This document shows, in pieces, positions 14,335 to 53,533 of a stretch of DNA of 64,000 nt (position 1 is its first letter; every line of letters begins with the position of its first letter). The DNA comes from Planctomycetota bacterium (GTDB lineage Bacteria; Planctomycetota; PUPC01; DSUN01). Location of the stretch: contig DAOOIT010000016.1 in assembly GCA_035384565.1 (NCBI GenBank), positions 10,545 through 74,544 on the forward strand. The letters are read 5' to 3'. A model generated the notes under the pieces. The model did no database searches. It saw nothing but the letters and a program-made list of their open reading frames with translations, and was not told the DNA's origin. The position numbers and the translations under genes are program-made.

Positions 14335-14373
14335 GCGCGGAACAACTTGCCAGCATTATAGCCCGGGAGGCCC

Positions 14374-32905: not shown

Positions 32906-32917
32906 ATGGTTCTCCTG

Positions 32918-34414
32918 TCATTGGCTTGGCACGAGCTTGACGATGAAGGCGTCGCCACTGCCGGCGTGGGTCTTCTGGACGGCATTCGGGGTCACGGGGA
33001 AGTCGGGCGACGAAGTGTTGCCGACGAGGTAGACCTCGCCCTTGGAGCCAAGGGCAAGGCTGCGAATCAGGTCGCCCCCGCTCCCGCCGAAGTAGGTGGC
33101 GTAAAGCAGTCTTGAGCCATCGGGGCTCACAATGGCCAGCACCCCGTCGCCCTCCCCTGCTTCCTCGGGGCCGCGGAAGGTGGGCTGCACAGCATCCGGG
33201 GTCACGGGGAAGTCGCGCGAGGTGGTCGTTCCAACGACGTAGAGGTTGCCGTCGGCATCCTGTGTCGGCATGAGGAAGAACTCACCCCCAGTTCCTCCGA
33301 GGAGGGTGGAGAAGATGAAGCGTCGTCCGTCGGGCGAGAGCTTGGCCAGGAAGCCGTCGTTCCTACCCCTCAGCTCGCGTTGAACCGCCGCGTTCGTCGT
33401 CGGGAAGTCGGGCGATGCGGTGACGCCGGAGAGGAGGAAGGAGCCATCGGCCAAGAGGAGCGGGCAGTGCTCGGCGAACTCGTTACCGCGGCCTCCGAGA
33501 TAGGTGGCGTGGAGGATGCGGGAGGCGTCGGGCGAGAGCTTGGCCAGGTAGCAGTCGAACTCCCCGCCGAGCTTGGGCTGGGGCGCGCCGGCCGTCACGG
33601 GGAAGTCATCGGACCTCGTGTGGCCCGCGACGTAAAGGTTCCCAGCGGCGTCGAGGCGGATGCCCATGATGGCGTCGTCCTCGCCGCTGCCGCCGAGGAG
33701 GGTGGCGAAGACGAGGCCGGAGCCGTCGGGTTTGAGCCTCACGATGGCGGAGTCGCGCGGCCCGCTCCGTTTCGGCTGCACGACGCCCCGGGTCGTGGGG
33801 AAATCGGGCGAGTTGCTGGTGCCGACGACGTAGACCGTGTCGTCCGGCCCGACAGCCAGGCCGCCGCGTGGGAAGTCGTCGCCCGAGCCGCCCACATAGG
33901 TGCACCAGAGGAGCTTCTTGAGGTCGGGCGAGAGCTTGGCCACGAGCATGTCGGACGGCCCGCCGCCGAACGTGGGCTGGAAGCAGCCCGAGGTGGTCGG
34001 CGCATCGGGCGAGCGGGTGGCGCTCGTGATGACCACGTTGCCCTTCGAGTCGATGCCCATGCCGTAGACGTTGCGCTCCTGCTTCGAGCCGCCGAAGTAA
34101 GTGGCGGCGAGCACCTTCGAGCCGTCGGGGCTGAGGCGGAGAAGGAAGCAGTCGCCGCCATAGATGCCGCCGTGGCCGAGGGCAGGGTCGTCGCCCGCGT
34201 AGGCCGGCTGCACAACGCCCTCCGTGGTCGGAAGGCCGGGTGAGCACACCTGTGCACCCACGAGCACGGAGCCGTCGGGACACGGGATTACCTCGCGCGC
34301 CTGGTCCCAACCGCTGCCGCCGAAGTAGGTGGCGTACTCCAGTTTGAACCTGGGCTGGGCGGCGGAGGCCGCCCCACACGAGAGGCACAGGAAGAGCACG
34401 AGTGTTCGCGACAT
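32918..34414 (-). CDS. secreted SBBP (beta-propeller repeat) protein
   Basis: Signal peptide MSRTLVLFLCLSCGAASA. Repeated YFGGSG..D.....DG.VYV.G.T.S.DFP.T.GA.Q units are typical of the SBBP repeat. Confidence 0.75.
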   Translation of the reverse strand: MSRTLVLFLCLSCGAASAAQPRFKLEYATYFGGSGWDQAREVIPCPDGSVLVGAQVCSPGLPTTEGVVQPAYAGDDPALGHGGIYGGDCFLLRLSPDGSKVLAATYFGGSKQERNVYGMGIDSKGNVVITSATRSPDAPTTSGCFQPTFGGGPSDMLVAKLSPDLKKLLWCTYVGGSGDDFPRGGLAVGPDDTVYVVGTSNSPDFPTTRGVVQPKRSGPRDSAIVRLKPDGSGLVFATLLGGSGEDDAIMGIRLDAAGNLYVAGHTRSDDFPVTAGAPQPKLGGEFDCYLAKLSPDASRILHATYLGGRGNEFAEHCPLLLADGSFLLSGVTASPDFPTTNAAVQRELRGRNDGFLAKLSPDGRRFIFSTLLGGTGGEFFLMPTQDADGNLYVVGTTTSRDFPVTPDAVQPTFRGPEEAGEGDGVLAIVSPDGSRLLYATYFGGSGGDLIRSLALGSKGEVYLVGNTSSPDFPVTPNAVQKTHAGSGDAFIVKLVPSQ

Positions 34415-34417
34415 GGC

Positions 34418-37138
34418 TCACTCCTTGTGTGAAGCGAGGGCTGTGGCCACCTCGCCGGCCGCGTCGAAGAGGCGTCGGCTGCGCTCTTGCCAGCCGAAGG
34501 GCGCGATGTCCTGGCAGCGCAGGCGCCAGAGGCGCATCAGGTTGGTTCGCACGTCGAGGAGTTGCTGACAGCTACGAGCGAGGTCGGCGGGCAGGGGTTG
34601 GTGCTTGTTCAACAAGGCTTTCTCGATGAAGACTCGGGCCTCGGCCTCCTGGTTGCCCTCGCGGGCGCACTCGAGGCGAATGGTCGTCACAGGGCCATCG
34701 GGGCCCGGGGCGAAGAGGTCGGTGCAGCTCCGCCCGAGGCCGGTCTCGTCGGCGTGCGAATGGAAGTAACGGTTGAAGAGCGTGCCGCCGCTGCCGCCCA
34801 CAATGCCCCAGTCAGGCTTGCCGTCGCCGAGGAGTTGCGCGCCGATGTGCCAGTAGTCGCCGCCGACGCGGCCGTTGCCGGCCCGGCCATAGACCAGCGT
34901 GCTCTCCATCCACATACGGAATGACCAGGGCGGCGGGAAGCCGATCAGCAGCAGGGCCGAGCCGCTGCGGTTGAAGTTGAGGATAACCTGGTTCGGGTCG
35001 TACTGCCAGCCATAGAGGCGCCGCACGGCGGGGTCGGGGATGTCGCCGCCGTAGACCACCGAGTTCCAGCGGACGGGCACGGTGGCCTTGGTCGCCGGGT
35101 CGTAGACGTAGGCTCGCTGGGGCTGGTGCGACTCGGCGAGCCAGCCGGCCTCGGGCAGAATGCGGCGGAACATGGCCGCCGTGGGCGGGTCAGGCCCCAT
35201 GTCGCCAGCGATCCCGAGTACGACCCGGTCGCCCAGCCCTTTGGCCTTCAGCCGTTCGTGAAGCGCGACGAGCAGGGGGCGCCAGGCGGCCTCGCACTCG
35301 GGCGTGCCGTACTGGGGGAGCTTGACGCTCTCGCGCCTGCCCGTGGCGGGGTCAATGACTGTGACGCGGGCGCCATAGAAGGAGGCGTAATCGCGCGGCC
35401 CCTTCCACGTGCGGTTCGACGCCTCGTAGCCCCAGGCGTTCAGCGAGACGAATCGCAAGCGGCCGTGGGTCTTGAGCGCCGCGTCGAGATAGCGGTCGAA
35501 CCGGCTGAAGTCGTAGCGATACGAGCCGTCGGGCTGCTTGAGCCAGGGCACGAGCGATTCGGGGTTGCCCATTTGGGATTCGGCGAGCAAGGGGATGAGG
35601 AGGCCAATGTTGCCCATCTCGCCCATCAGCGCCAGGCTCTTCTCGATGAGCCGCCAATGCGCGTCGGACCAGGGCTCGACCTTGTAGTATCGAGCCAGGG
35701 TGTCGGGCGACTGATAGATGTGGAGGAGCGTCGCATAGTCCTTCACGTCGGGAAGGGTCCAGTCGCACACATGTAGTTCGAGGGTGCCGGCGAAGGCCCG
35801 GCCTTGCGCTTCGATGGCCAGTTCGCCGGTGTAGCGGCCGGCAGGAGCGCCCTTAGGCACCCTGGCCGATACCCAGATGGCCACGGCCGTGGCGTTGGCT
35901 GGCGGGGCGTCGAGAAGCATGTCGAAACGGGTGCCGCCCTCGGCGCCGGCATCGCGCTTCCAACGGGGCGGCGTGACGGGCATGCCCATCTGGCGCAGCG
36001 CGTCGGGCCAGAAGGGGTTGGGCACGCCGTAGCGCACGCGGATCGCCTCGGCGGGGATGAGGCCGCTGCCGCTTACCTGCTTGAGAGCCGCGGCCCTGGC
36101 CGAGAGGCCCCTCAGCGGCTCGTCGCTGGCCACGATGGCCTGGCCGGCGAAGGTGCCGTTGCGGGCGCCCACGATGCGCACCTTGCCTCGGCTCTCGTTG
36201 GCCGCCGACAGCGCGGGCTCGAAGAGCGTGCGCGTCGTGTCCACGGTCCACACCTGGATGCCGCCCGGTCCGGTCCTTGTGGCTCCATCCTGAGCGTCCA
36301 GGCGGAGTTCGAGGCGGCCCAGGCCCACCGTGGCGGCGATGGCGTCGGGCTGCCGCATGCACTGGGGCGGGTAGGTGCCGCGGTGCATCTCGATGGCGAG
36401 CACGTTCGCGCCGTTGCGCAGGGGGCCGAGCGGGATCGCGACGGGACCGAATGCCCGCTCGCGCAGCGCCCACTGCGGGCACCGGAGGTCGTTGGTGTCG
36501 AGGGGTCGGGGGCGGCCCTTCTCCAGGCTGTCGCGGTAGAAGAAGGCTTCGGGCGGGTATGCCTCAGCGGGGGTGCCGGGGCGCAGATTGCCCTCTGGCA
36601 GGTGCGCGCGGGCGACTTCGACGCCGTTGAGGTAGGCCACGAAGCCGCCGCGGCAGCTCAGCGCGAGCGTGAGCCTGCGCACCTTCGTGCGGTCGGCCAC
36701 GGCGAAGCGGCCGCGCAGGCACACCAGGCCCACGGCGGGCAGAAACGGGTCCGTGCCGCGGAGGCGCGTGCTGATTCCCTCCTGGCTCATCTCGCCGATG
36801 AGCTTGAGGTCTTTCACGCCGTGCTCGAACTCCTGGCCGGGGGCGAGGAGCCAGTCGTCATCGTCGAAGTCGGGTGCGGCCCAGTTCGATGGCGGCGCCT
36901 CGGGGAACATCGCGGCCAGGCTGTCGGGTCTGGGTGCCTGGGCACCCTCGTCCGCGAACACAGGTGGGAACGTGGTGTAGTGCTTGCGCCAGTAGTGGCG
37001 CTGGGTAAGGAGGGCTTCGCCGCCGCTCAGCGGCTCGGCTCCAGAGACGGGAGGGCCGCCGAGCGCCGACACCAGAAGAGCCATGAGCACTACGAGGGGG
37101 GGGCGCACAAGGAGCGAAGGCCCCCCAGACATGGTCAT
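34418..37138 (-). CDS. large secreted glycoside-hydrolase-like protein, paralog 3
   Basis: PDFDDDDW motif. Blocks HVCDWTLPDVKDY..SPDTLARYYKVEPWSDAHW and QEAEARVFIEKAL. The likely start is MTMSGGPSLLVRPPLVVLMALLVSALG at 37138; the ORF is open to 37396 but the upstream codons are R-rich low complexity. Confidence 0.78.
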   Translation of the reverse strand: MTMSGGPSLLVRPPLVVLMALLVSALGGPPVSGAEPLSGGEALLTQRHYWRKHYTTFPPVFADEGAQAPRPDSLAAMFPEAPPSNWAAPDFDDDDWLLAPGQEFEHGVKDLKLIGEMSQEGISTRLRGTDPFLPAVGLVCLRGRFAVADRTKVRRLTLALSCRGGFVAYLNGVEVARAHLPEGNLRPGTPAEAYPPEAFFYRDSLEKGRPRPLDTNDLRCPQWALRERAFGPVAIPLGPLRNGANVLAIEMHRGTYPPQCMRQPDAIAATVGLGRLELRLDAQDGATRTGPGGIQVWTVDTTRTLFEPALSAANESRGKVRIVGARNGTFAGQAIVASDEPLRGLSARAAALKQVSGSGLIPAEAIRVRYGVPNPFWPDALRQMGMPVTPPRWKRDAGAEGGTRFDMLLDAPPANATAVAIWVSARVPKGAPAGRYTGELAIEAQGRAFAGTLELHVCDWTLPDVKDYATLLHIYQSPDTLARYYKVEPWSDAHWRLIEKSLALMGEMGNIGLLIPLLAESQMGNPESLVPWLKQPDGSYRYDFSRFDRYLDAALKTHGRLRFVSLNAWGYEASNRTWKGPRDYASFYGARVTVIDPATGRRESVKLPQYGTPECEAAWRPLLVALHERLKAKGLGDRVVLGIAGDMGPDPPTAAMFRRILPEAGWLAESHQPQRAYVYDPATKATVPVRWNSVVYGGDIPDPAVRRLYGWQYDPNQVILNFNRSGSALLLIGFPPPWSFRMWMESTLVYGRAGNGRVGGDYWHIGAQLLGDGKPDWGIVGGSGGTLFNRYFHSHADETGLGRSCTDLFAPGPDGPVTTIRLECAREGNQEAEARVFIEKALLNKHQPLPADLARSCQQLLDVRTNLMRLWRLRCQDIAPFGWQERSRRLFDAAGEVATALASHKE

Positions 37139-37263
37139 TCCGAGTGGTGTCTTGCGAAGTCGAGGAATCTGCCGTCTGCTGGAGCCGAGAAGAGTCGCCT
37201 CGCCTTCGTTCGGCATGCGCAACCCCATTGCTGCGTCCACCGTGCGCCAGGGCATCATGAGAG

Positions 37264-39508
37264 TTACTGCTCCGGGAAGTTCAGGGGGTTCAGCGGGTCG
37301 GTGCCTGCCTTCTTCTCCTCTTCGTTCGAGTAGCCGTCGCCATCGGCGTCCGGGTCGGCGTTGTCGCCGATGCCGTCGCCATCGGTGTCGCGCCACTCCT
37401 TCGGGTCGCGGGGGAAGGCGTCCCAGGGCACGGCCGAGGCGTTCGGCACCCCGTCGCCGTCCCAGTCGAGTTCCTCGTTGTCGGGCACGCCGTTCTTGTT
37501 CAAGTCGTCCGCCTTGCCGTCGCCGTCAATGTCGGCGTCGAGGTTGTCGCCGATGCGGTCACCATCCACGTCGGCCTGCTCCTCACGCTCGAGGGGGAAG
37601 GCATCTTTGGCATCGGGCGCGCCGTCGTTATCGTCGTCATCGTCCTGATCGTTGGGCTGGCCGTCGCCGTCGCTGTCGGGCGGGGCGCCCTCGGTGACAA
37701 GGAGGGCGATGTCCACACTGAAGGGCGGTGCGACGAAGGTCTGCGTGCCGGCGGGGGCGTCGAGGCGGGCGAGGATGGCGGCGTCGGTGGGGCTGTACCA
37801 GTAGGCTTTGGCGGCCTGAGGCACGTCTACGGTGACTTGGAGGTCTTTGACCTCGCCGCGGTCGTGGTCCCACGTGTGGTGACGGGGCTGGCCGGCGGGC
37901 GTCTGTGCGCATTGGGCGCAGGCGCCGTGGTGGAGGTAGACGCCGGCGCGCCGGTCGGAGCGGAGGCCGTACGCCCGCACATCCTTGGCCTGCAACCCGG
38001 CCAGGTGGACGGGCATCGGCCTCACGCCGGCATCCAGGCAGTGGGCGAAGTCCTGGAGGGCCTTGGTGTACTGCCGCTCTTCGGGGCCGATCCAGATGTT
38101 CATGTGGTGGCCGTCCTTGGCGTAGGACGTTTCCCAGAAGATGAAGGAGACTTGGTTGAAGAAGGCGCTCCAGAGTCGGACGCGCATGCGGCGGGCGGAG
38201 CCTGGGTCCCACACGCCGCCGATGCCCTGGGGGATGAGTTCGGGTTTGCCGCCGCCGTTGCCCTGCTCGCCGTAGACGACGGGCTTGCCGTGCCGTTTGT
38301 GGTTCCTGGCGTTGCCGGCCGATGCCTGGTCGGAGGCGAGTTCGTCTTCGCGGCCGTACCAGTGGGGGGCCGAGATGTCAATGCCGGCCAGATCGGGTCG
38401 CTCCCAGCTCGTGGCCAGGGGCTTGCCGTAGGGGTCAATGGACTTCAGGTAGGGGATGGTGATGGCGTACCAGCCGTCGGCGGCTTTCTGCTCGTTGAGG
38501 AGTTCCCAGAAGTCCACGTAGGCGCCCCAGCGGTCCACCGAGTACTTGATGAGGGCTTTGACTTTGGCCATGCCCACGGCGTCGTCGGGCTGGTCATTGA
38601 AGACGCGGGCAAAGCCGAAGATGCCATAGAAATTGCGGATGCCATACTTCATCGTGAGCTGGAGCATCTCGTCCACCATCGCCGCCTGTTCCCAGCGGAT
38701 GCGGGCGGGGGTGGCGGCTTTGGGGTCGTAGTGGATGTCGAAGACGGGGATGGAGAAGTTGTGGGGCGAGAAGCGCCAGAGGTTGAAGCCGGCGCGAGCG
38801 TGGCGGCCGAAGTAGACGTCGCCGTTTTGCGGATTCATCGAGGGGCCGCGGGCAAACATCGCTCCAGGCGGCGGGGCGGGGCGCTCGCCGCCATGTGTGT
38901 CGAGGCGGAAGGGACCCTCCATGGACTTCTGGTCCATCGCTGATCCGTTGTGGTTGCCATCGAAGACGCCGTCCTGGGTGCCGATGGGCCAGAAGGGGCT
39001 GCCGTCTTCGTAGATGAAGGTGAAGGGGTTCGCGGGGTTGATGCGCACCCAGCCCTTGGGCGGGATGCGGGGTTTGACGACCTTGAAGGCTCCCTTGCCC
39101 TCCGTGCTCTGGCCCTGGGCATTGCGGAAGACCCATTCGTAGGACCACTCGCCCACCTCGCTCGGGGCGTAGCGGGCCTTCCAGGTGTCGGCGGGGTCGC
39201 AGGGCCAGACGGCGTCGGATCGCTCGCGGCCCTTGGCATCCTTGAACTGGTGGATGACCGGCTTCTGGGGCTTCGAGGAGCCGTAGAAGAAGCCACCGAC
39301 CTTGGGCTTCTTGCCGCTGGGCGACGTGAGGGCCACGTCAATCGTCACGTCCCAGTTCGGGTCGGTATACCTGCCCTCATGCTGGAAGGTCAGCTCAATG
39401 ACCTGGTAAGGCATGAGGCGCGGGGTGTTCTGGGTGACCTTCACCTCGAGGGCCCAGGCGGGCGCGAGCCCGCCGAAAGCCAACGCCAATGCCACCGGCC
39501 ATCGCATC
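37264..39508 (-). CDS. secreted GH-A-clan (cellulase-like TIM-barrel) hydrolase-like protein with C-terminal thrombospondin type-3 calcium-binding repeats
   Basis: Signal peptide MRWPVALALAFGGLAPAWA (ATG at 39508, GGAGG 9 nt upstream). Central TIM-barrel-like region has ..FWELLNEQK.. and ..VVYGEQGNGG... The C-terminal 150 aa are D-rich DxDGDGxxDxxD repeats typical of TSP3 Ca-binding motifs. Confidence 0.75.
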
Positions 39509-39521
39509 AGTGTCGCCTCCG

Positions 39522-41270
39522 TCACTTGAGGAAATCGGGCAGGTAGCTATCGCCGGAGTCCTTGGGCTGGAGCTTCTTGCGCTGCTCCTCGCGCTGGCGG
39601 CGCTCGGCCTCGCGGAGTGCGCGGTAGGAGCCGCGCGTGAGGCGATCCTCGTTGCCCGGCCCGGCGATGACGACGATGGAGCTCTCGGCCATCAGGTGCT
39701 TCTGCTTGGCATTGATGTGGTAGCAGCGGCTCTGGCACAGGCCGCAGCCGTTGCACTTGTCGGCGAGCACGACGGGCGCGGAGAAGCCGCTGCCTTCGAC
39801 CGGCTGGCCGTCGTCGCCGATCTCGACGTGGACGCGGACGAACTCGATGGCGTCGTAGCCGGCGGCCTTGCACTCGTCGAAGCACATCTGGCAGGCCTCG
39901 GTGCCGAGGTGCGGCAGGCAGGTGGCCTCGTTGACGATGGCCAGGCCGATGCGGGCGGCGCGCTTCTCGTCGAGCGGCAGGGCGCGAATCGCGCCCGTGG
40001 GGCACACCTGGCCGCAGTTGTTGCACTTCGGCTCGCAGCCGACCCAGTCGGGCACCACCTGCGGCGTCCACAGGCTCTCAAGGCCGTGCTCGAAGCCCAT
40101 CGGCTGAAGGACGTTGAACGGACAGGCCTTGAGGCACTGGCCGCAGCGGACGCACAGGCGCAGGAAGTCGGGCTCGGGCACGCTGCCCGGCGGGCGCAGC
40201 GGCGGGTGGTCGGGCGGCGCGCCGCGGAGCTGGCGAATCCCGACCGCTGCGGCCAGACCCGCCCCCAAGCCCATCGCGAAGCCGCGGCGCGAAACAGGGC
40301 CGTCGCTGGCGCCGGATGTGCGACGCGCGAGGCGCCGCCAGCCGAACTCGATGGCGTTGACGGGACACACCTTGCCACAGGTCTGGCAGAAAGTGCAGTC
40401 GAGGGCGCGGGTGGTGAAATCGGGCCTGATGGCGTCGAAGGAACATGCCCGCGCACACTTGCCGCATTGGATGCACGCCGGCGTCACCTTGCGCTCGGTC
40501 AGCCGGAGGACGTTCGCCACGGAGAAGACTGCGCCACTGGGACACAGGTACCGGCACCAGAAGCGGGCGGCGAGCAGGCCCAGCGCGATCGTGAGCACGA
40601 ACAGCCCGATGGAGAGGTAGTGCCCCGCGTGCATCGGCGGGATGAGGTACCAGCCCTTCGCCAGACCGAGTTGCACGGGGGCGGCCAGATACATCATCCC
40701 GCGCGTGAACACGGGGATGGCGGCGACGAAGCCCGACAGCAGCACGCCGCACGCCGCGGCGGCGAGGAGGCCGCCGAGCACATAGTACCGCAGATGCACC
40801 CACCAGCCGCGGCGCCGCGCTTCCCCCACCTTCTCGTCCCTGCGCTCTGCGTGGGAGCGTGTCTGCCGACGCTCTGCGTCGCGGGCACGGAGGGCCGCGG
40901 AGCGGCCGAAGAGGCGTCCCCAGGCGGAGCGCAGGGATGAGAGCGCGACATGGAACAGGTCGAGGAGGGTGCCGAAGGGGCAAACATAAGCGCAGAAGCC
41001 GCGCGGGATGACCAGGCACACGGCCAGCAGTGCGGCCGCCCAGGCGAGCGACCAGACCCAGGCTCGCGCCGCAATGGCCGTCGAGACGCTCACGAGCGGG
41101 TCGAGTGCGAGGAATGCCTCGGCCTCGACCATCTCGCGCGCGGCCCGCGCCTCCGCGTGGTGGCGCACGTCATAGGGCCAGCAGACGGAGAAGAAGAGGG
41201 CGAGGAAGAGGAGGAAGCAAGCAGATTGAATCGGCCGGCGGAGTCTGCCAATGGCGCGGAGCAGGAACAA
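39522..41270 (-). CDS. membrane-bound polyferredoxin, a NapH/MauN-like N-terminal half fused to a NapG/MauM-like C-terminal half
   Basis: Two CX3CP motifs in TM helices (CAYVCPFG, CRYLCPSG). Six CxxCxxCxxxC(P) 4Fe-4S motifs follow (CIQCGKCARAC, CTFCQTCGKVCP, CVRCGQCLKACP, CNNCGQVCP, CQMCFDEC, CNGCGLCQSRC). There is an internal twin-arginine-like motif, SRRGFAMGLGAGLAAAVG. Confidence 0.8.
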   Translation of the reverse strand: MFLLRAIGRLRRPIQSACFLLFLALFFSVCWPYDVRHHAEARAAREMVEAEAFLALDPLVSVSTAIAARAWVWSLAWAAALLAVCLVIPRGFCAYVCPFGTLLDLFHVALSSLRSAWGRLFGRSAALRARDAERRQTRSHAERRDEKVGEARRRGWWVHLRYYVLGGLLAAAACGVLLSGFVAAIPVFTRGMMYLAAPVQLGLAKGWYLIPPMHAGHYLSIGLFVLTIALGLLAARFWCRYLCPSGAVFSVANVLRLTERKVTPACIQCGKCARACSFDAIRPDFTTRALDCTFCQTCGKVCPVNAIEFGWRRLARRTSGASDGPVSRRGFAMGLGAGLAAAVGIRQLRGAPPDHPPLRPPGSVPEPDFLRLCVRCGQCLKACPFNVLQPMGFEHGLESLWTPQVVPDWVGCEPKCNNCGQVCPTGAIRALPLDEKRAARIGLAIVNEATCLPHLGTEACQMCFDECKAAGYDAIEFVRVHVEIGDDGQPVEGSGFSAPVVLADKCNGCGLCQSRCYHINAKQKHLMAESSIVVIAGPGNEDRLTRGSYRALREAERRQREEQRKKLQPKDSGDSYLPDFLK

Positions 41271-41436
41271 GAGAGAGCCCTCGACTTTGCTTGGCTCCGC
41301 TCGGGATCACGAAGGCCGACTGGGCCGCGTCCCCTCAGTACCGCCCCACAAGGAAGGGCGTGCAGTTCTGGTGGCACAGCCCCTAGGCTGTGGACGAAGC
41401 GGGGCGTGCGCCCAGGCGGCGTTCATGAGCAGGCGT

Positions 41437-42849
41437 TCATTTCATCGCCCCGGCGAGGGCCTTCGCGGTGGCGTTCACGATGGCCTCGGAGGTGATGGTG
41501 GCGCAGGTGACGGCGTCAATCCCCTTGACGCTCTGCTTGGCGACGATCTGCTCGGGGACGGCGACGAGCGAGCTGTAGTATTGCTTGTCTTCGAAGCGGC
41601 TGACTCGGACCGATTCGATGCGGCCGGCGGCGACGGTGACGGTGACCTCGAGCGGCCCGGCGTAGGAGATGCTGGTCGCGCGGTAGGCGCCGTCGGGGAT
41701 GCGCTTGAGGTCCAGGGCATCGTAGACCTTGATGGCGTCTATGTTGGCCTGGGCGCGGTTGCGGAGGCGCTCGATCTGGCCCTTGCGCTGGCCGATGGGC
41801 TGGATTTCGAGGACCTTCTGGTAGCGGGCGACGGCGTCGGAGTAGCGGCCGTGGAGGCGGCAGACGTCCCCGGCGGCGAGGTGGCCTTCGGCCACCCAGC
41901 TCTGGTCGCCGCGCTCGTCGGGCCGCGCCATGGCGGCGGCGAGTCGGAGGGCCTTCTCAGGCTCGCCCATTTCGGACCAGAGCTTGACGATGCCGGCCGA
42001 CACATAGCCGTCCACCTCGCGCATCTTGGCCACGGCCATGGCCTTGCTACCGAGGCGCCAGTAGCATTCGGCCAGGCGCACCGTGTTGAACACGCTGAGC
42101 TTCTGGCGGGCGGCCACCTTCTCCCACCAGAAGGCGGCCCGCGCCCAGTCCTGCATCAGGTTGAAGTAGCTGTTGGCCAACGCCTCCATGGTGCGCGTGA
42201 GCACGGGGGGATTGTCTTTGTGCACGGTGAGGAGGTGGTGGAGGAAGCGGATGCCGCTCTTCCAGCGGCTGGGGTTCTCGTTGATGGTGCTCCAGAGGTA
42301 TTGCCCGATGTTCTTCGAGGGGTTCCAGGGGCCTTGGGGCTTCTCGGGCCACGAGAGGTCGAGGCTCTGGGGATAGTCGAGGGGCGTGGCCTCGTACCAG
42401 TCGGGCGGCGTAGCGCCCGCCTTACGGATGAGCGCAGCCACCTCGGCTTGCGAACGTGCGCCGGCCTTGGGGCTGGGCTCCGACTTGGCCTCCGGCTCGG
42501 GGTCCGATGCCACCGGGGTCTTGGCGGCCTGCGGGGTCTCCTCGTCGTCGGGCGCCTCGCCGTGCTCAGGAGGCTGGGCCTTTGTGGCGGCCTTCGATTC
42601 GGCGCCGGGCTTCTCATTCAGCACGATGCGCCGGCCGCCGATGGTGACGGCGTGGACGCGCGAGACGGGGAACCGCATCTTCGTCTCGGCCCCGCCCATC
42701 GTCACGTTGAAGGTGATGGAGTCTTTGGACTCCTCGACCACGCTGCCGCGGATCCGCTGGCCGTTGAGGAGTTCGACCTCGTCGGCGAGCGCAAGGCCCG
42801 ACATCAGCAGCGAACCCGCAAGAAGCACTGCCATCACGTAGACCCGCAT
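41437..42849 (-). CDS. exported FMN-binding-domain protein (NosR/RnfG/NqrC-type FMN_bind domain at the C-terminus, TPR-like middle region)
   Basis: Signal peptide MRVYVMAVLLAGSLLMSGLALA (ATG at 42849, GGAGAAA upstream). The C-terminal block ..KGIDAVTCATITSEAIVNATAKAL is the conserved FMN_bind motif carrying the flavinylated Thr. A low-complexity P/E/A linker is present. Confidence 0.65.
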   Translation of the reverse strand: MRVYVMAVLLAGSLLMSGLALADEVELLNGQRIRGSVVEESKDSITFNVTMGGAETKMRFPVSRVHAVTIGGRRIVLNEKPGAESKAATKAQPPEHGEAPDDEETPQAAKTPVASDPEPEAKSEPSPKAGARSQAEVAALIRKAGATPPDWYEATPLDYPQSLDLSWPEKPQGPWNPSKNIGQYLWSTINENPSRWKSGIRFLHHLLTVHKDNPPVLTRTMEALANSYFNLMQDWARAAFWWEKVAARQKLSVFNTVRLAECYWRLGSKAMAVAKMREVDGYVSAGIVKLWSEMGEPEKALRLAAAMARPDERGDQSWVAEGHLAAGDVCRLHGRYSDAVARYQKVLEIQPIGQRKGQIERLRNRAQANIDAIKVYDALDLKRIPDGAYRATSISYAGPLEVTVTVAAGRIESVRVSRFEDKQYYSSLVAVPEQIVAKQSVKGIDAVTCATITSEAIVNATAKALAGAMK

Positions 42850-42956
42850 GCTCGGTTTCTCCAAGGCCCTGGGTCGCAATTCAAGCACGAAGGGGCGCTG
42901 GCCGTCAAGCGCGAAGGCCGACGGAGCGACCCGGCCATCCCACGAAGGGGCTGGCG

Positions 42957-45221
42957 TCACTCGCCCTGTATCTTGCGCAGCACCTCGACGAGACGGACGA
43001 CCTTGCCCTCCTGGTGGGCGATGCCGGCCGCCACGCGGTCGCCTGCGCGCACGGTGCCCAGGGCCTCCGCGAGAGCGGGGGGCAGCCCGTCGCGGTTCAC
43101 CGACACGGTGAGCAGCTTGCCGGCGAGGCCCTCGGGATTCCTGGCGGTGTTGGACTGCCAGACTCTCGTGACCTTGTCGGCGCGGAGGACCAGGACGCCT
43201 TCGCCCTTGCCGACCACCACGCCCTCGATCATCCCGCGGAAGCCTGCCACGTCGTCGGCCGTGGCCGGGCCGGCGGCTTCGGTGCGGGTTTCGGGCTTCG
43301 GCTCGTCGCGGCGCTCGCCGTCGCGGGCGACCTTCTTCTCGCGCCAGAACGCCTCGTCGTCGCCGTCGCGTCGCACGGGCTTCTCGCGGCGTTCGCCCTC
43401 GCCGTCGGGCGCGACCTTCTTCTCACGTCTCTCGCCGTCGCCCTCGGGGGCGGTCTTCTTCTCGCGCCAGCCGCCGTCGCCCTCGCCTTCGGTGCGAACC
43501 TTTTTCTCGCGCCAGCCGCCTTCGCCCTCGCCCGAGCGCTTGTCGCGCTTGGGCTGATCGGGCGCGTCGAGCACGCGGTACCTCTTCACCACGAGGCCCG
43601 GCTCGATGCCGTCCTCGCCCGGCGTCGCCTCGCCCACGAGGCGCACGCGGCGGCCGTTCGCCTCGTCCACCAGCTTCGCGCCGTCGGCCTCCTTGAGGAT
43701 GCGGTAGACGGTGACCTTCTCGCGCACGCCCTCGTCGGTCTCCTTGCGTTCGACGACTTTGAGGATGCCGGCGCAGTCGCGGTCGGGCGTGGCCTTCACC
43801 CAGCCCTCGAGTTCGCGCAGCCGACCGCTCTCGGCCTCGACCTTCTTGACGCGGGCGTGGCCTTCGCCTTCGCTCTCGCGGACGGGTTCGACCTTCTTGA
43901 CGCGCGCATGGCCTTCGCCCTCGCCCTCGCCCTCCGGCGCGATCCTCTTCTCACGATGGTGGCCTTCGCCCTCGCCTTCGCGGACGGGTTCGACCTTCTT
44001 GACGCGCGCATGGCCTTCGCCTTCGCCCTCGCCCTCGCCCTCGGAGCGAGCCGGCTTGTCGCGCTCGCCCTCGCCGCCTTCGGTTTCGGCCTTGCGAAGG
44101 AGCTCCATTACGGAGAGGCGGAAGCCCTGGATGTCGAATGCCTCGACGATGATCTGGTCGCCCTGTCGGAGCGACTTGAGGGTTTCGAGGTGCTTCTCGA
44201 GCATGCGGTTCTCGGGCACGACGACCTCGATCGTCTTGCCAACGGCCTGTTCGGGGTGTCGGGCCGTGCTCTGGGGCCAGGTGGCGGCCACTTTGTCAAT
44301 CTTCAGCAGGAACTCGCGTGTGACCTTGCTGGTGATGGTGCCGACGAGGATGCCCTTGAAGCCTTTGAGTTCGGGGGGCAGGGTCGGGCGCTCGGCGTCG
44401 CCGCCGGCGAACACCTGGCTCATGCCGGGGCCCAGCACCGCCACGTCGCCGAAGTGGCAGGCCACCATCCCCGTCACCACCATCACCGTCACCACGGCCG
44501 ACTTCTTCAGCGTCCCCATGTCGCGTTCTCCTTTCTGCGATTCGGGGTATTCGACGCTGGTGAGAAACTCGGTGCCTTTGACCTCGATGGAGCCGATGGG
44601 CGTGAGGAGCGTGAAGCGCCCCCTGCCCGGGTCAATGCGGGAGATGGCGCGGCCGCGCTGGAGCTCGATGGCCTCGTGGCGCGGCTGGCCGCGCACGACG
44701 GCCTGGGCGTTGGGGTCGAGGGCCACGCGGCAGTAGCCGCCGAGGGCGAGTTCGGCGCCGCCGGCTTCGGCGACGATGCGCTGGCCCCGCGAGAGCGCGG
44801 CGGAGCCGGTGCGGAGGGTGTCACCGTCGCCGAGGCGGAATGCGCCCGTGGCGATGAGCGAGTGTGCGCGCCCGCGGCTCGCCTGCCAGACGCCGTGGGC
44901 GGCATAGAGCGCGCCGAGGAGGACGGCGGCGGCCGCGGCCCAGCGCAGCCCTCGGCCTCGGCGGGCCGGGCGGCGCTGGATGGCGTGGGCTTTGGCGCGC
45001 AGGGTGGCCTTGGCGAGGAGACGCTCGCGGCTGTGGGCCAGGGCGTCGGCCTGGCGGCCTGCCAGGCGCTGGCGGAGCTGGCCCTCGAAGCACACGGCGG
45101 CCGCGGCCTCCTGGCGCCGGGCCGGGTCGGCGAGGGCGGCGGCCAGGGCGCGGGCTTCGGCCTCCGAGAGCGGCTCGCCCTCCAGCGCGCGGTCGAGGAG
45201 ATCGTGCCAGTGGCTGCTCAT
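42957..45221 (-). CDS. anti-sigma factor (N-terminal anti-sigma domain, one TM helix, FecR-like domain) with a long C-terminal extension of three repeated ~70-aa domains separated by EG-rich tandem repeats
   Basis: Start MSSHWHDLL at 45221 overlaps the sigma-factor stop (ATGA). TM LRWAAAAAVLLGALYAA. A FecR-like block (GSIEVKGTEF). Repeats (EGEGEGEGHARVKKVEPVRE)x4 and (GEGDGGWREKKxAPE)x4. Upstream in-frame codons (to 45527) are R/P-rich and were rejected. Confidence 0.7.
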   Translation of the reverse strand: MSSHWHDLLDRALEGEPLSEAEARALAAALADPARRQEAAAAVCFEGQLRQRLAGRQADALAHSRERLLAKATLRAKAHAIQRRPARRGRGLRWAAAAAVLLGALYAAHGVWQASRGRAHSLIATGAFRLGDGDTLRTGSAALSRGQRIVAEAGGAELALGGYCRVALDPNAQAVVRGQPRHEAIELQRGRAISRIDPGRGRFTLLTPIGSIEVKGTEFLTSVEYPESQKGERDMGTLKKSAVVTVMVVTGMVACHFGDVAVLGPGMSQVFAGGDAERPTLPPELKGFKGILVGTITSKVTREFLLKIDKVAATWPQSTARHPEQAVGKTIEVVVPENRMLEKHLETLKSLRQGDQIIVEAFDIQGFRLSVMELLRKAETEGGEGERDKPARSEGEGEGEGEGHARVKKVEPVREGEGEGHHREKRIAPEGEGEGEGHARVKKVEPVRESEGEGHARVKKVEAESGRLRELEGWVKATPDRDCAGILKVVERKETDEGVREKVTVYRILKEADGAKLVDEANGRRVRLVGEATPGEDGIEPGLVVKRYRVLDAPDQPKRDKRSGEGEGGWREKKVRTEGEGDGGWREKKTAPEGDGERREKKVAPDGEGERREKPVRRDGDDEAFWREKKVARDGERRDEPKPETRTEAAGPATADDVAGFRGMIEGVVVGKGEGVLVLRADKVTRVWQSNTARNPEGLAGKLLTVSVNRDGLPPALAEALGTVRAGDRVAAGIAHQEGKVVRLVEVLRKIQGE

Positions 45222-45712
45222 GGCGCCAGTTCCCCGGCCAGTTGGCCCTCGACGCATCGCTTGAGGGCTTGGCGGATGCGGAAGAGCTGGACCCGTACGG
45301 TGGCGGCGTTCCGGGAGAGCTGCTCGGCGATCTGGGTGACCCGCAGGCCGTGCTCGTAGCGGCGGGCCACGAGGTCGCGGTCCTCGGGCGATAGGGTGCC
45401 GAGGCAGTGGTCGAGGGCGGCGTGAAGCTCGCGGCTGGCGGCGCGCGAGAGTGCGTCGTCGGCCTCCTCGGCCAGGAGAGCGAGGCGGTCGGCGGCGTCC
45501 TGCGTCAGCTTCTGATGCTCGCGCCACCAGGTCTTCACCAGGTTACGCACGGTGCCGCGGAGCCAGGCGCCGGGGTCGCCGGTGAACTCGCGCCCCTCTT
45601 CCAGGCGGTCGAAGGCGATGAGGAATGCCTCGTGCACGATGTCCTCGGCCTCGGGGGCGCCGCGGGTGAGGAAGCGCGCGTAGCGCCACGCGCCTTCGTA
45701 GTGGCGGTCCAC
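45218..45712 (-). CDS. ECF-type RNA polymerase sigma factor (sigma-70 family group 4)
   Basis: ..RFEALVDRHYEGAWRYARFL.. is region 2.1/2.2, and ..LSPEDRDLVARRYEHGLRVTQIAEQLSRNAATVRVQLFRIRQAL.. is the region-4 HTH. GTG at 45710-45712. The in-frame upstream codons (..RLRHRFEALV..) suggest the true start lies a few codons further 5' at a non-ATG codon. Confidence 0.75.
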   Translation of the reverse strand: MDRHYEGAWRYARFLTRGAPEAEDIVHEAFLIAFDRLEEGREFTGDPGAWLRGTVRNLVKTWWREHQKLTQDAADRLALLAEEADDALSRAASRELHAALDHCLGTLSPEDRDLVARRYEHGLRVTQIAEQLSRNAATVRVQLFRIRQALKRCVEGQLAGELAP

Positions 45713-45860
45713 CAGGGCTTCGAAGCGGTGGCGCAGGCGGCTGATGGCGAGTCTCCTGGTATGTGCGGCCAGCTTCCTTCATAGGGTACTGTGGCGCGGG
45801 AATCAAATGTTTCACGGTTCTCCGCCTGCGGCGCCGGCATGTTGCTGCTTGGCAACATGC

Positions 45861-45983
45861 CACCCATACTTGCTCATTCCTGTGAGGGTGGAATTGAGCA
45901 AGTATGGGTGGAACGCCCCCGGAGGCCGCCGGATCGCCAAAGCGCCATACTTGCTCACCTGGGGGGATGAGCAAGTATGGGGG
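45861..45983. repeat. Family-A hairpin repeat cluster (four alternating copies of CCATACTTGCTCA / TGAGCAAGTATGG) in the divergent promoter region between the ECF sigma gene and the 46169 gene
   Basis: Copies at 45863-45876(-), 45895-45908(+), 45945-45958(-) and 45968-45980(+). The 45929-45958 copy carries the full 30-bp unit including GGCGATCCGG. Confidence 0.7.
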
Positions 45984-46168
45984 ACGGGGTGTCTGATTTG
46001 TCGGACTCGTTGGACGTGTCGGACTGGTCGGACGCATCGGACTTGTCGGGTTCGCCGGCTTCGGGGGCTAATTGGCCTTGCACGAGATGGGCGGGCTGAC
46101 ATGAATAGAGTCGCTGCCCCGCACGAGGGCGGAGAGACCGAGGGTGAAGGGGAGAAGGAGGAGTGGCG

Positions 46169-47434
46169 ATGAAGCAACGGGTTCTTTCGCGCCGCGGCTG
46201 GCTGGCGCGGGCCGGGGCGGGCGCGGCAGCCTTGGCCGTGGTGAACCGCTCCGCCCTCGGCGGCGAGGGGCGCCGGGCGCCCAGCGATGTGCTCACCCGC
46301 GCCACCATCGGCATCGGCGGCGCGCTGGCGGGCACCGTGCGCCCCAACGAGCCGGGGAAGCCCCCCTTCATGCTCGCGGTGTGCGATGTGAATGAGTCTC
46401 GCTTGCAGGCAGCACTCAACAAGGCGGGCTCGCCGTGCGAGGGCTATGTGGACTTCCGCCGGGTGCTGGACCGCCAGGATATTGACGTGGTCTACATCGG
46501 CACGCCGCCGCACTGGCACGCGCTGATCTCGATCATGGCGATGCAGGCGGGGAAGGACGTGTTGTGCGAGAAGCCGATGACGCGGTTCATCGCGGAGGGC
46601 CGGGCCGTGGCGGAGACGGCCCGCCGCTACGGCCGGCTCTTCCAGATCGGCACCTACGGGCGCTTCGGCGTCGGGGGCAACGACCGCACCTACAAGGTCA
46701 TGGCCAGCGGCGCGATCAAGGAGAACGGCCCGGTCGTGCGCTTCACGCGCCCCCAGTACGACTGGAAGGTGAAGATGTGGAGCGGCCGCACGCATCTCGA
46801 GCCGCAGCCCGTGCCGAAGGGGTTCCACTACGACCTGTGGCTCGGCCCCTCCCCTTCCAAGCCCTACCACCCGCACCGCGTGCACGGGAGCTTCCGCGGC
46901 TACTGGGACTACGATGGCGGCGGCCTGGCCGACATGGGCGAGCACTACCTCGACGGGCCGCAGTGTCGCTACGCGAAGGACCACACCAGCCCGGTCGAGA
47001 TCGAGGCTTCGGCCCCCCGGCCCCAGCACGACGAGGCCGTGCAGATGTGGGGCTGGGTGACGCTGAAGTACGCCGACGGCACCACGTTCATCCTCGAGAG
47101 CGGCGAGTGGGGCGAGCCGTGCCCGCTCCAGGAGCGCGGCTTGCCGCCGCTGACAGACGAGCAGGAGAAGCTGGTGGCCGCCGTGCCTGACATGCCGCGC
47201 AAGTACGGCGCCGGCGAGGGCAGCTTCGAGGAGGCCGTGCGCCTGCGCGTCCAGTGCGCGGGCAACGCCGACGTGTCGCACCGCTGCGCCACCCTGCTGC
47301 ACCTGGCCAACATCGCCATCCGCCTCGGACGCAAGCTGCGCTACGACCCCGACAAGGAGCAGTTCATCGGCGACGACGAGGCGAACCGCCTGGTGAACGT
47401 GCCCATGAGGGCGCCGTGGCATTTGCCTGTGTGA
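46169..47434 (+). CDS. Gfo/Idh/MocA-family oxidoreductase with twin-arginine (Tat) signal
   Basis: MKQRVLSRRGWLARAGAGAAALAV is a Tat signal (SRRGWL). ..DIDVVYIGTPPHWHA.. is the Gfo/Idh/MocA Rossmann block. ATG at 46169 is 7 nt after GGAGG. The long antisense ORF 45812-47422 was rejected. Confidence 0.8.
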   Translation: MKQRVLSRRGWLARAGAGAAALAVVNRSALGGEGRRAPSDVLTRATIGIGGALAGTVRPNEPGKPPFMLAVCDVNESRLQAALNKAGSPCEGYVDFRRVLDRQDIDVVYIGTPPHWHALISIMAMQAGKDVLCEKPMTRFIAEGRAVAETARRYGRLFQIGTYGRFGVGGNDRTYKVMASGAIKENGPVVRFTRPQYDWKVKMWSGRTHLEPQPVPKGFHYDLWLGPSPSKPYHPHRVHGSFRGYWDYDGGGLADMGEHYLDGPQCRYAKDHTSPVEIEASAPRPQHDEAVQMWGWVTLKYADGTTFILESGEWGEPCPLQERGLPPLTDEQEKLVAAVPDMPRKYGAGEGSFEEAVRLRVQCAGNADVSHRCATLLHLANIAIRLGRKLRYDPDKEQFIGDDEANRLVNVPMRAPWHLPV

Positions 47435-47458
47435 GGTGAGCGGCCGAGGCAGGTCTTA

Positions 47459-47600
47459 CTACTCCGGCCGCCAACCAGTTTGCAGTGGCCGGGATCACGC
47501 TGCGTCGGCCAGGGCATCAAATGTTCCGCTTGCGGTGGTTTTCGACAAGCGAGACGCTTGTCGCAACGCGGAAGAATGCGAACTGATTCGCGGCCGTGGC
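47459..47600. repeat. Family-B double-hairpin repeat (ACTACTCCGGCCGCCAACC..CCGCTTGCGG..CGACAAGCGAGACGCTTGTCG)
   Basis: It shares the ACTACTCCGGCCGC leader and the CAAGCG/CGCTTG palindromes with 7147-7245 and 60037-60110. Confidence 0.6.
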
Positions 47601-47685
47601 AGTATCTGTCCCCATCGGTGCCATCGGTCCTATAGAACAGATAGGACGGATAGGGCCGATAGGACGCCAGAGAGGAGAGAAAGCA

Positions 47686-50310: not shown

Positions 50311-50347
50311 GCTGCCGGGCCGCGGCCCGCGATGAAGGGAGCCGACC

Positions 50348-53005: not shown

Positions 53006-53533
53006 ATGAACGCCTCCGAGCCCCCCCAACTCGACCGCCAGGACGACACGACCGTGCGCGCCAGGGGCCGGCACGACGTGGACCTCGACCTCTGGTTCCC
53101 CCCGGCCGCGAAAGCCTTGTTGCCGCTGGACAAAGGGTCCCTCAAGACCGACTTCCTCTCCATCAAGACGCACAGCGCCGGCCCCCCCTCGACCGACCAG
53201 TATGGCCTGCACCTCGTGCTGGAGCCGGGCGCAAGCCTGCCCTTCATCCTCTACCCGCGCCTGCGCGACGAGAAGCCCCCGGCCCTCTTCGTCCACGGCA
53301 CGCCCGAGGCCATCGAGCTCGCCAGCCCGGCGGGCACGGACTACCTGTTCCTTTCGCCCGAGTCGCGCGAACTGCGCGTCGCCAACATCCGATTCAAGGG
53401 CACCGTCGGTGTCGTGCAGGCGCGCGGGAAGCAAGTCACGCTCACCCTCTGCGCACCGGGGGAATTGAGCTTCGGCCGCCTGGAACTGGCGGGCGAGAGG
53501 CCGGTCTCTCGGGCCTTTGCCCGACAGGATTGA
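53006..53533 (+). CDS. C-terminal beta-sandwich continuation of the 50348-53005 protein (same frame, begins at the codon after the TAG)
   Basis: ATG at 53006 directly abuts the TAG, and no Shine-Dalgarno of its own is apparent. Either a split/pseudogenised gene or a read-through. Confidence 0.4.
   Translation: MNASEPPQLDRQDDTTVRARGRHDVDLDLWFPPAAKALLPLDKGSLKTDFLSIKTHSAGPPSTDQYGLHLVLEPGASLPFILYPRLRDEKPPALFVHGTPEAIELASPAGTDYLFLSPESRELRVANIRFKGTVGVVQARGKQVTLTLCAPGELSFGRLELAGERPVSRAFARQD

Follow-up and report, generated by a model that had tools for sequence, protein, structure and literature searches.

On the minus strand of a 64,000-nucleotide stretch of DNA from a member of the Planctomycetota (GenBank assembly GCA_035384565.1, contig DAOOIT010000016.1, positions 10,545 to 74,544; the whole stretch is called the window below), the gene at 39522..41270 (-) encodes a polytopic polyferredoxin (PFD), a chain of 582 amino acids that combines hydrophobic helices with many cysteine motifs. 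Directly upstream lies a gene for a protein with an FMN_bind domain. The open reading frame (ORF) of the PFD begins with a TTG codon, and the frame at 39522-41270 (-), with a G+C content at third codon positions (GC3) of 0.90, is the coding frame, as evidenced by the G+C content of the codon positions. A protein record annotated as '4Fe-4S binding protein [Planctomycetota bacterium]' (P0001) holds the identical 582-aa protein. Because 120 full-length homologs exist, a gene-fusion artefact or a frameshift was rejected as the origin of this ORF.

Architecture of the polyferredoxin

The NapH-like half of the protein (residues 1-312; 40335..41270, -) has four hydrophobic helices and carries a pair of CX3CP motifs as well as two cysteine motifs of the ferredoxin type. 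Kyte-Doolittle (KD) hydropathy gives four peaks above 1.9 ahead of the twin arginine described below (residues 13-32, 70-88, 167-185, and 219-237), which is an even number. An AlphaFold2 (AF2) model was built from A1, a 37-sequence alignment that reaches 30% identity, and it has a pLDDT of 87.9 and a pTM of 0.85. The first transmembrane (TM) helix, TM1 (residues 13-32; 41175..41234, -), is called from hydropathy and corresponds to a helix at residues 11-30 in the model. The N terminus ahead of it is basic (RAIGRLRR) and is predicted to lie inside the cell; the loop at residues 98-160 is basic as well.

TM2 (residues 70-90, from hydropathy) and the first CX3CP motif (C93, C97, and P98) together occupy residues 70-98 (40977..41063, -), and the three motif residues are invariant in all 120 close homologs and in A1. 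A long, presumably cytoplasmic loop rich in Arg and Glu, which is predicted to be helical, then connects TM2 to TM3 (residues 98-162; 40785-40976, -), with pLDDT falling to 51-62 over residues 121-150. TM3 (residues 163-187; 40710..40784, -) is supported by hydropathy and by the AF2 model. TM4 (residues 217-237) leads into the second CX3CP motif, RFWC239RYLC243P, and the segment comprising both (residues 217-244; 40539..40622, -) is kept in 119 of the 120 homologs. An earlier note on this DNA, made from the sequence alone, had placed the two CX3CP motifs within TM helices; both motifs are there, but the first comes at the end of TM2 and the second at the end of TM4, and neither is inside its helix. 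The same note correctly saw two ferredoxin clusters in this half. They correspond to two CxxCxxCxxxC motifs within residues 262-306 (40353..40487, -), namely C266/269/272/276 and C292/295/298/302, which are predicted cytoplasmic [4Fe-4S] sites and whose eight Cys residues are invariant in 120 of 120 homologs.

Between the halves lies a twin-arginine motif with a fifth transmembrane domain (TMD5) and two trailing arginines (residues 327-349; 40224..40292, -). Read from the protein, this segment is S327-R328-R329-GFAMGLGAGLAAAVGI, followed by R346 and R349. S327-R328-R329-G-F heads a Gly/Ala-rich helix at residues 330-345, which the AF2 model extends to 328-347. The internal Arg-Arg pair (RR) is thus as the earlier note described it, except for its position: it heads a fifth helix and does not follow a TM segment.

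The NapG-like domain (residues 359-520; 39711..40196, -) opens with RPPG at residues 359-362 and contains 16 Cys residues in four groups (373-383, 412-423, 451-467, and 506-516). The earlier note had counted four CxxCxxCxxxCP clusters here; the number of groups stands, but the strict pattern occurs only at residues 373-384, and the other three read Cx3Cx2Cx3CP, Cx8Cx2Cx3C, and CxxCxxCxxxC. A charged C-terminal tail (residues 540-582; 39525..39653, -) has a predicted helix at residues 549-567 and is modeled with low confidence at the very end.

This architecture and its conservation are matters of direct observation. All the Cys motifs of the PFD are conserved, both the two CX3CP and two CxxCxxCxxxC motifs before the RR and the 16 Cys residues after it. 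The 28 ligand Cys residues, including all 16 of the C-terminal half, are invariant in A1, and they are kept in at least 119 of the 120 close homologs. R359-P-P forms invariant columns in A1 as well. R328-R329 is invariant in 120 of 120 close homologs (52-100% identity) and in 37 of 37 diverse sequences (A1), while S327 is kept in 98 of the 120. The twin arginine is therefore as conserved as the metal ligands, which argues for a functioning twin-arginine translocation (Tat) signal. This speaks against the suggestion in the earlier note that the motif is vestigial, as does the finding that the equivalent RR drives Tat export in protein Q1NSB0 of delta proteobacterium MLMS-1 (PMC5449189).

Relation to NapH, NapG, and an experimentally tested polyferredoxin

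Searches of NCBIfam assign different nearest families to the two halves. For the C-terminal half, the top match is NapG (NF007012, E 5.6e-27, 94.5 bits) and the second is MauM/NapG (TIGR00397, E 1.5e-22, 80.2 bits), with NapF and generic ferredoxin families scoring far lower than NapG; another scan gave E values of 4.5e-27 for NapG and 4e-22 for MauM/NapG. For the N-terminal half, the top match is NapH/MauN (TIGR02163, E 2.8e-15 for the half alone and 5e-12 for the whole protein), followed by NosR (E 2e-12) and then NapH. In addition, Pfam Fer4_5 (PF12801), the domain of the NapH/NosR type, is found at residues 72-108 with 45.8 bits against a cut-off of 22. The prediction that one polypeptide joins a NapH-type to a NapG-type half is thereby borne out, the two being collinear with their best-matching families, and so is the expectation that the C-terminal half would align better to NapG/MauM than to generic ferredoxins, since NapG/MauM is its best family.

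Pairwise comparison with reference proteins of Escherichia coli K-12 (taken from locus L088) gave similar results. BLASTP aligned residues 308-516 of the PFD with residues 8-196 of NapG (E 3e-24, 33% identity), and this alignment starts inside the NapG signal peptide; the match to NapH has an E value of 3e-7. The RR region of the PFD resembles the NapG signal peptide, as the earlier note had proposed, in that it matches the consensus S-R-R-x-F-L and lies 31 residues from RPPG, compared with 35 in NapG. E. coli NapG likewise has four Cys groups after its Tat signal and RPPG, with a Cys spacing of [2,2,3]27[2,4,3]27[7,2,3]31[2,2,3] compared with [2,2,3]28[3,2,3]27[8,2,3]38[2,2,3] in the C-terminal half of the PFD. 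E. coli NapH has four TM helices, two CX3CP motifs, and two C-terminal ferredoxin motifs, like the N-terminal half.

Such a layout raises the question of whether the protein is a genuine, if fused, NapGH quinol dehydrogenase that feeds a periplasmic nitrate or other reductase encoded nearby. Of all named families, NapG and NapH give the halves their highest scores, and the CX3CP motifs and cluster layout map one-to-one on the E. coli proteins. However, all scores fall far below the curated cut-offs, both for NapG (94.5 versus 269 for NF007012 and 80.2 versus 178.85 for TIGR00397) and for NapH (56.6 versus 213.05 for TIGR02163 and 43.3 versus 234 for NF007013), and the N-terminal half is also far below the cut-off of 1000 for the NosR model. 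By sequence score, then, NapH and NapG are the nearest families of the two halves, which are not members of them by the curated cut-offs. Further differences separate the proteins. NapG and NapH of E. coli and Wolinella are separate subunits of the periplasmic nitrate reductase system, whereas the PFD is one chain, and its Tat signal is internal and presumably kept as an anchor. Moreover, the 64-kb window contains no recognizable nap (napA, napB, napC, and napD included), mau, nos, or other terminal oxidoreductase gene, no nap, mau, or terminal reductase gene was found in seven related contexts with precomputed annotation, and the conserved neighbor is instead the FMN_bind protein. Because of the subthreshold scores and the lack of a nap context, we regard a true NapGH as very improbable. 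For the same reasons, and given the conserved FMN_bind partner, the fusion does not support a quinol-oxidizing electron input for the neighboring operon, as the earlier note had argued from it. Quinol oxidation by the PFD is possible by analogy with NapH, and nothing in the data points to it specifically.

A closer precedent comes from work by Tooke et al. (2017; eLife 6:e26577, PMC5449189), who described the MLMS-1 protein Q1NSB0 as a 'polytopic polyferredoxin' and a 'fusion of NapH ... with NapG'. Q1NSB0 has five TMDs, a conserved RR just before TMD5, and seven predicted clusters, of which three are cytoplasmic and four are outside (PMC5449189). MBP and AmiA reporters fused after TMD5 were exported in an RR- and Tat-dependent manner, and the hand-over from the general secretory (Sec) pathway to Tat was ascribed to the low hydrophobicity of TMD5 and to positive charge on its C-terminal side (PMC5449189). 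The architecture and biogenesis of this class of protein are therefore already published, and the fusion is not the unusual arrangement that the earlier note took it for.

The PFD of the window resembles the MLMS-1 protein in its NapH-like four-helix part with two CX3CP and two ferredoxin motifs, in an RR placed directly before a weakly hydrophobic fifth helix that is followed by positive charge, and in its C-terminal four-cluster NapG-like domain. BLASTP against residues 1-364 of Q1NSB0, taken from supplementary file 1 of PMC5449189, gave a collinear alignment of PFD residues 38-312 with residues 30-316 (E 1e-19, 26% identity), and the string RFWCRYLCP is common to both proteins. The loop at residues 98-162 of the planctomycete protein is missing from the MLMS-1 PFD, where it leaves a 35-residue alignment gap, and from E. 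coli NapH. By this analogy, the PFD of the window is most likely a planctomycete-clade member of the known Sec/Tat dual-targeted NapH-NapG polyferredoxins, with a flavoprotein partner specific to its lineage.

Relatives are widespread. A word-indexed protein search returned 2284 proteins at E<=1e-10, and the best 120 of these share 52-100% identity with the query and nearly all align over >90% of it. An exhaustive search returned 676 clusters (at 50% identity) at E<=1e-30, and relatives occur in at least 512 species-representative genomes from many phyla. These include the Planctomycetota, Verrucomicrobiota, Desulfobacterota, Nitrospirota, NC10, and Acidobacteriota, and also Caldithrix, Ignavibacteria, Spirochaetota, Elusimicrobiota, Gemmatimonadota, Myxococcota, and others; the Planctomycetota are not among the phyla named by Tooke et al. 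(PMC5449189). Regular expressions recovered the architecture in at least 95 of 150 representatives, which is a rough lower bound, as the RR was misplaced in some and many others are contig fragments. One close homolog (P0105, 721 aa; L005:8001-10166) is approximately 140 aa longer than usual.

The properties of TMD5 bear on which side of the membrane the NapG-like domain occupies. TMD5 is weakly hydrophobic (KD 1.25-1.4), and a crude Hessa-scale sum for it is +4.4 in the PFD, with a median of +3.7 in the 120 homologs, compared with medians of approximately -1 for TM1-4; to the detriment of our reading, this figure is an unweighted sum and not the output of the published ΔG predictor. TMD5 of the MLMS-1 protein scores +3.8 by the identical crude measure. 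Both proteins have trailing Arg residues, R346 and R349 in the PFD, and at least one Lys or Arg follows TMD5 in 87% of homologs.

With a segment this weakly hydrophobic, the fifth helix might not be inserted at all. The protein would then consist of a four-helix NapH/NosR-like anchor bearing a six-cluster polyferredoxin, the NapG-like domain would be cytoplasmic, and the RR would be kept for some other reason. The case for export in the planctomycete clade does rest on analogy, and what comes closest in the Protein Data Bank (PDB), by structure and by sequence, are cytoplasmic polyferredoxins such as FwdF and MvhB. A sequence search of the PDB with the PFD returned generic ferredoxin matches only and no solved relative of the whole protein, and Foldseek with the AF2 model found nothing at E<=0.001, its best match being the FwdF polyferredoxin (6.8e-3, TM-score ~0.1). 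Nevertheless, low hydrophobicity combined with trailing positive charge is the very signature of Tat-dependent TMDs. The full Tat consensus S-R-R-x-F-L is present with an invariant RR, and Tat exports the homologous domain of NapG, whose RR lies at a like distance from RPPG. The proteins encoded upstream are also exported, the FMN_bind protein in the planctomycete lineage and a Tat-signal DUF362 protein in distant relatives, which argues for a periplasmic surface. Since the Tat consensus is invariant and the partners are exported, we consider a cytoplasmic location quite unlikely, and export of the NapG-like domain remains the preferred reading.

The FMN_bind partner and the gene neighborhood

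The gene directly upstream of the PFD (41437..42849, -) encodes a 470-aa protein with tetratricopeptide repeats (TPR) and a C-terminal FMN_bind domain, as evidenced by Pfam matches to TPR and to FMN_bind (E 5.9e-10). Its N terminus is a Sec-type signal peptide, MRVYVMAVLLAGSLLMSGLALA, with a cut site before DE. A homolog of this partner lies directly upstream of the PFD at 17 loci, which represent 16 distinct contexts (L001-L004, L006-L016, L019, and L043), in addition to the window. The FMN_bind gene is the only constant neighbor of the PFD across the related planctomycete-type loci; none was found in L017, a short locus. The partner family has 948 matches at E<=1e-10 and is annotated only as 'FMN-binding protein'; the lengths of the contigs listed for these matches agree with those for the PFD matches.

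FMN_bind domains are flavinylated by ApbE at the motif Dxx(s/t)gA(T/S). The partner in the window has a putative motif of this kind, D-A-V-T-C-A-T (41497..41517, -), the last Thr of which is the predicted FMN acceptor (Thr488 in the numbering of a 507-aa ORF). The pattern D-x-x-[ST]-x-A-T occurs in 17 of 18 partners, with the remaining one having Ala at the Ser/Thr position, and the A-T pair is invariant in all 18. The residue at the Gly position is not constant (G, S, Q, C, R, or N, and mostly Gly or Ser), so it seems free to change in these sequences and the acceptor A-T seems fixed. Both the linkage of the partner to the PFD and the retention of its putative flavinylation motif are observed directly. 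In three loci (L007, L008, and L011), the gene next upstream of the partner encodes ApbE itself.

A framework for such pairs is available from Meheust et al. (2021; eLife 10:e66878, PMC8238504), who described 'NapH-like' flavinylation-associated electron transfer systems that include NosR and PceC/RdhC. A split version, in which the FMN_bind domain is encoded by a 'second gene', is present in 539 of 2465 clusters (PMC8238504). The PFD and its FMN_bind neighbor form a split 'NapH-like' flavinylation system by the operational definition of that study, as they comprise a PF12801 membrane Fe-S protein beside an exported FMN_bind protein, with ApbE adjacent in some loci. However, the published description says nothing of a four-cluster periplasmic domain of the NapG type, of a Tat motif inside the chain, or of a partner with TPR (PMC8238504).

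NosR and PceC are instructive because they suggest a different role. The pair might be a split accessory of the NosR/RdhC(PceC) type that activates or maintains a periplasmic enzyme encoded nearby, such as the DUF5060, GH123-like, or GFO/IDH/MocA protein. NosR is the second-best match of the N-terminal half (E 2e-12), NosR and PceC unite FMN_bind with a NapH-like domain (PMC8238504), and a GFO/IDH/MocA gene with a Tat signal lies nearby in the window and has homologs near the PFD at other loci. On the other side, the neighbors other than the FMN_bind gene vary from locus to locus. NosR and PceC also lack a NapG-like periplasmic domain, and their FMN_bind domain is fused to the N terminus of the membrane protein, whereas beside the PFD it is encoded by a separate gene. 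We judge an accessory role of this kind to be unlikely, and we continue to favor a PFD that passes electrons to the FMN_bind protein itself.

The remaining genes of the neighborhood illustrate this variability. Directly upstream of the partner gene is a gene for a FecR-domain protein (42957..45527, -; Pfam FecR), a putative anti-sigma factor, and the same-strand run is headed by an ECF-type sigma factor (45218..45778, -; Sigma70_r2 and r4_2) that has a homolog in L007. The order in L007 is sigma-FecR-ApbE-FMN_bind-PFD, which matches the window with the addition of ApbE. The sigma factor and FecR protein were rejected as conserved partners because they recur only in L007. Within the 166-nt intergenic region at 41271-41436 (-), the sequence CACAGCC-TAGG-GGCTGTG forms a short inverted repeat. 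The region yielded no call of a terminator-like site, and a promoter/terminator scan of 37000-46500 gave nothing above shuffled expectation.

Downstream, starting 17 nt after the PFD stop codon, is a gene for a secreted protein with DUF5060 and TSP3 repeats (37264..39507, -; Pfam). It is not a conserved neighbor, as a homolog lies beside the PFD only in L001. Genes for a GH123-like protein, a beta-propeller, another GH123-like protein, and a ceramidase-like protein continue the minus-strand run beyond it. Altogether, the window has three large GH123-like proteins with GH123_cat and an N-terminal domain (30278-37396, -, and 14362-16893, +), and besides the DUF5060/TSP3 protein it also encodes SBBP and PQQ_2 beta-propellers, GH5, GH4, and a heparinase-like protein. 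This is a neighborhood for glycan degradation, of a kind typical of planctomycetes, and it has no respiratory genes.

The GFO/IDH/MocA gene (46169-47434, +) is divergent from the sigma/FecR/FMN_bind/PFD run. Its product has a canonical N-terminal twin-arginine signal, MKQRVLSRRGWLARAGAGAAALA (SRRGWL), and is probably a periplasmic NAD(P)-dependent dehydrogenase; the signal is an indication of Tat use in the source organism. Homologs are found near the PFD in four distinct contexts comprising five loci (L002/L003, L010, L015, and L018). Enzyme families such as DUF5060, GH123-like, and GFO/IDH/MocA proteins are very abundant in planctomycete genomes, so this proximity may be due to chance. Three minus-strand ORFs in this part of the window (45812-47422, 47341-50889, and 50297-53434) were rejected because they have no Pfam match and GC3 places the real genes on the plus strand.

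More distant relatives of the PFD, at approximately 30% identity and from many phyla (L020-L087), have a different companion. At 43 of 63 such loci, the upstream gene on the same strand encodes a Tat-signal DUF362 protein (PF04015) of approximately 310 aa, an example being L020:4982-5920 (+), and 36 of these 43 proteins, as called, have an RR motif among their first 45 residues. Of the 63 loci, 61 have a gene for DUF362 at some position; the planctomycete-type loci have none. The planctomycete PFD thus neighbors a TPR and FMN_bind protein, whereas distant relatives, including one at a Desulfobulbaceae locus, neighbor a Tat-signal DUF362 protein instead. DUF362 and the N-terminal domain of LarA belong to a common Pfam clan, CL0471 (PMC11770544). 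A full-text literature search found no paper tying DUF362 to the PFD, and the searchable literature holds no description of either the DUF362-PFD or the TPR-flavoprotein-PFD pairing.

A proposed route for electrons across the membrane

We think it likely, largely by analogy with the MLMS-1 protein, that the PFD is a five-helix, Sec/Tat dual-inserted transmembrane electron conduit that serves a periplasmic flavoprotein. By that analogy, TM1-4 of the NapH-like part would be inserted cotranslationally by Sec, which would place the two CX3CP motifs at the cytoplasmic face of the membrane and the two [4Fe-4S] motifs in the cytoplasm. The NapG-like domain would fold and gain its four [4Fe-4S] clusters in the cytoplasm, and Tat would then recognize S-R-R-G-F within the chain, together with the weakly hydrophobic TMD5 rich in Gly and Ala, and export the domain, with the fifth helix staying behind as a membrane anchor. 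The result would be a single chain with approximately seven Fe-S clusters, a count taken by analogy, that spans the membrane. Electrons could move through it between the cytoplasmic side, either from the quinone pool or from a cytoplasmic donor, and the periplasm. In the planctomycete lineage, the periplasmic partner would most likely be the upstream TPR and FMN_bind protein, presumably flavinylated by ApbE; by analogy again, the two proteins would interact physically.

Several observations weigh against this proposal. The PFD shares only 26% identity with the experimentally tested MLMS-1 protein, and the BLAST alignment between them ends before TMD5. There is no solved structure with the PFD architecture, and a chain of clusters across the membrane is a prediction only. 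No FMN_bind neighbor was found in L005 or in the verrucomicrobial locus L018. The partner encoded in the window has Cys in place of Gly in the putative flavinylation motif, and a search of the window with the ApbE of L007 as the query did not find ApbE. Finally, the partner gene and the PFD gene are 166 nt apart (41271-41436), which leaves their cotranscription putative.

The upstream position holds DUF362 in distant relatives and FMN_bind in the planctomycete-type loci, which suggests that the membrane conduit is conserved and that its clients in the periplasm can be exchanged. We therefore propose, tentatively and as an idea with somewhat less than even prospects, that the PFD may serve as a transmembrane 'electron socket' of general purpose and that evolution may have replaced the client it serves in the periplasm, with DUF362 in most phyla and a TPR and FMN_bind protein in the Planctomycetota and Verrucomicrobiota. 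If this is true, then the pair in the window would be an uncharacterized periplasmic redox module that is conserved and abundant in planctomycetes.

These results also correct a tempting annotation, as the PFD gene is not a Nap component and gives no sign of quinol-driven nitrate respiration. With a confident AF2 model and no structure of this architecture, the PFD is a reasonable structural target. A concrete hypothesis is that electrons cross the membrane and reach a TPR protein to which flavin is covalently bound, and cultured relatives that could be used to pursue it include Novipirellula (L013). More broadly, few families of Sec/Tat dual-inserted membrane proteins are known, and only one polyferredoxin has been tested; a large, conserved planctomycete family that has so far been called '4Fe-4S binding protein' would now take its place among them.

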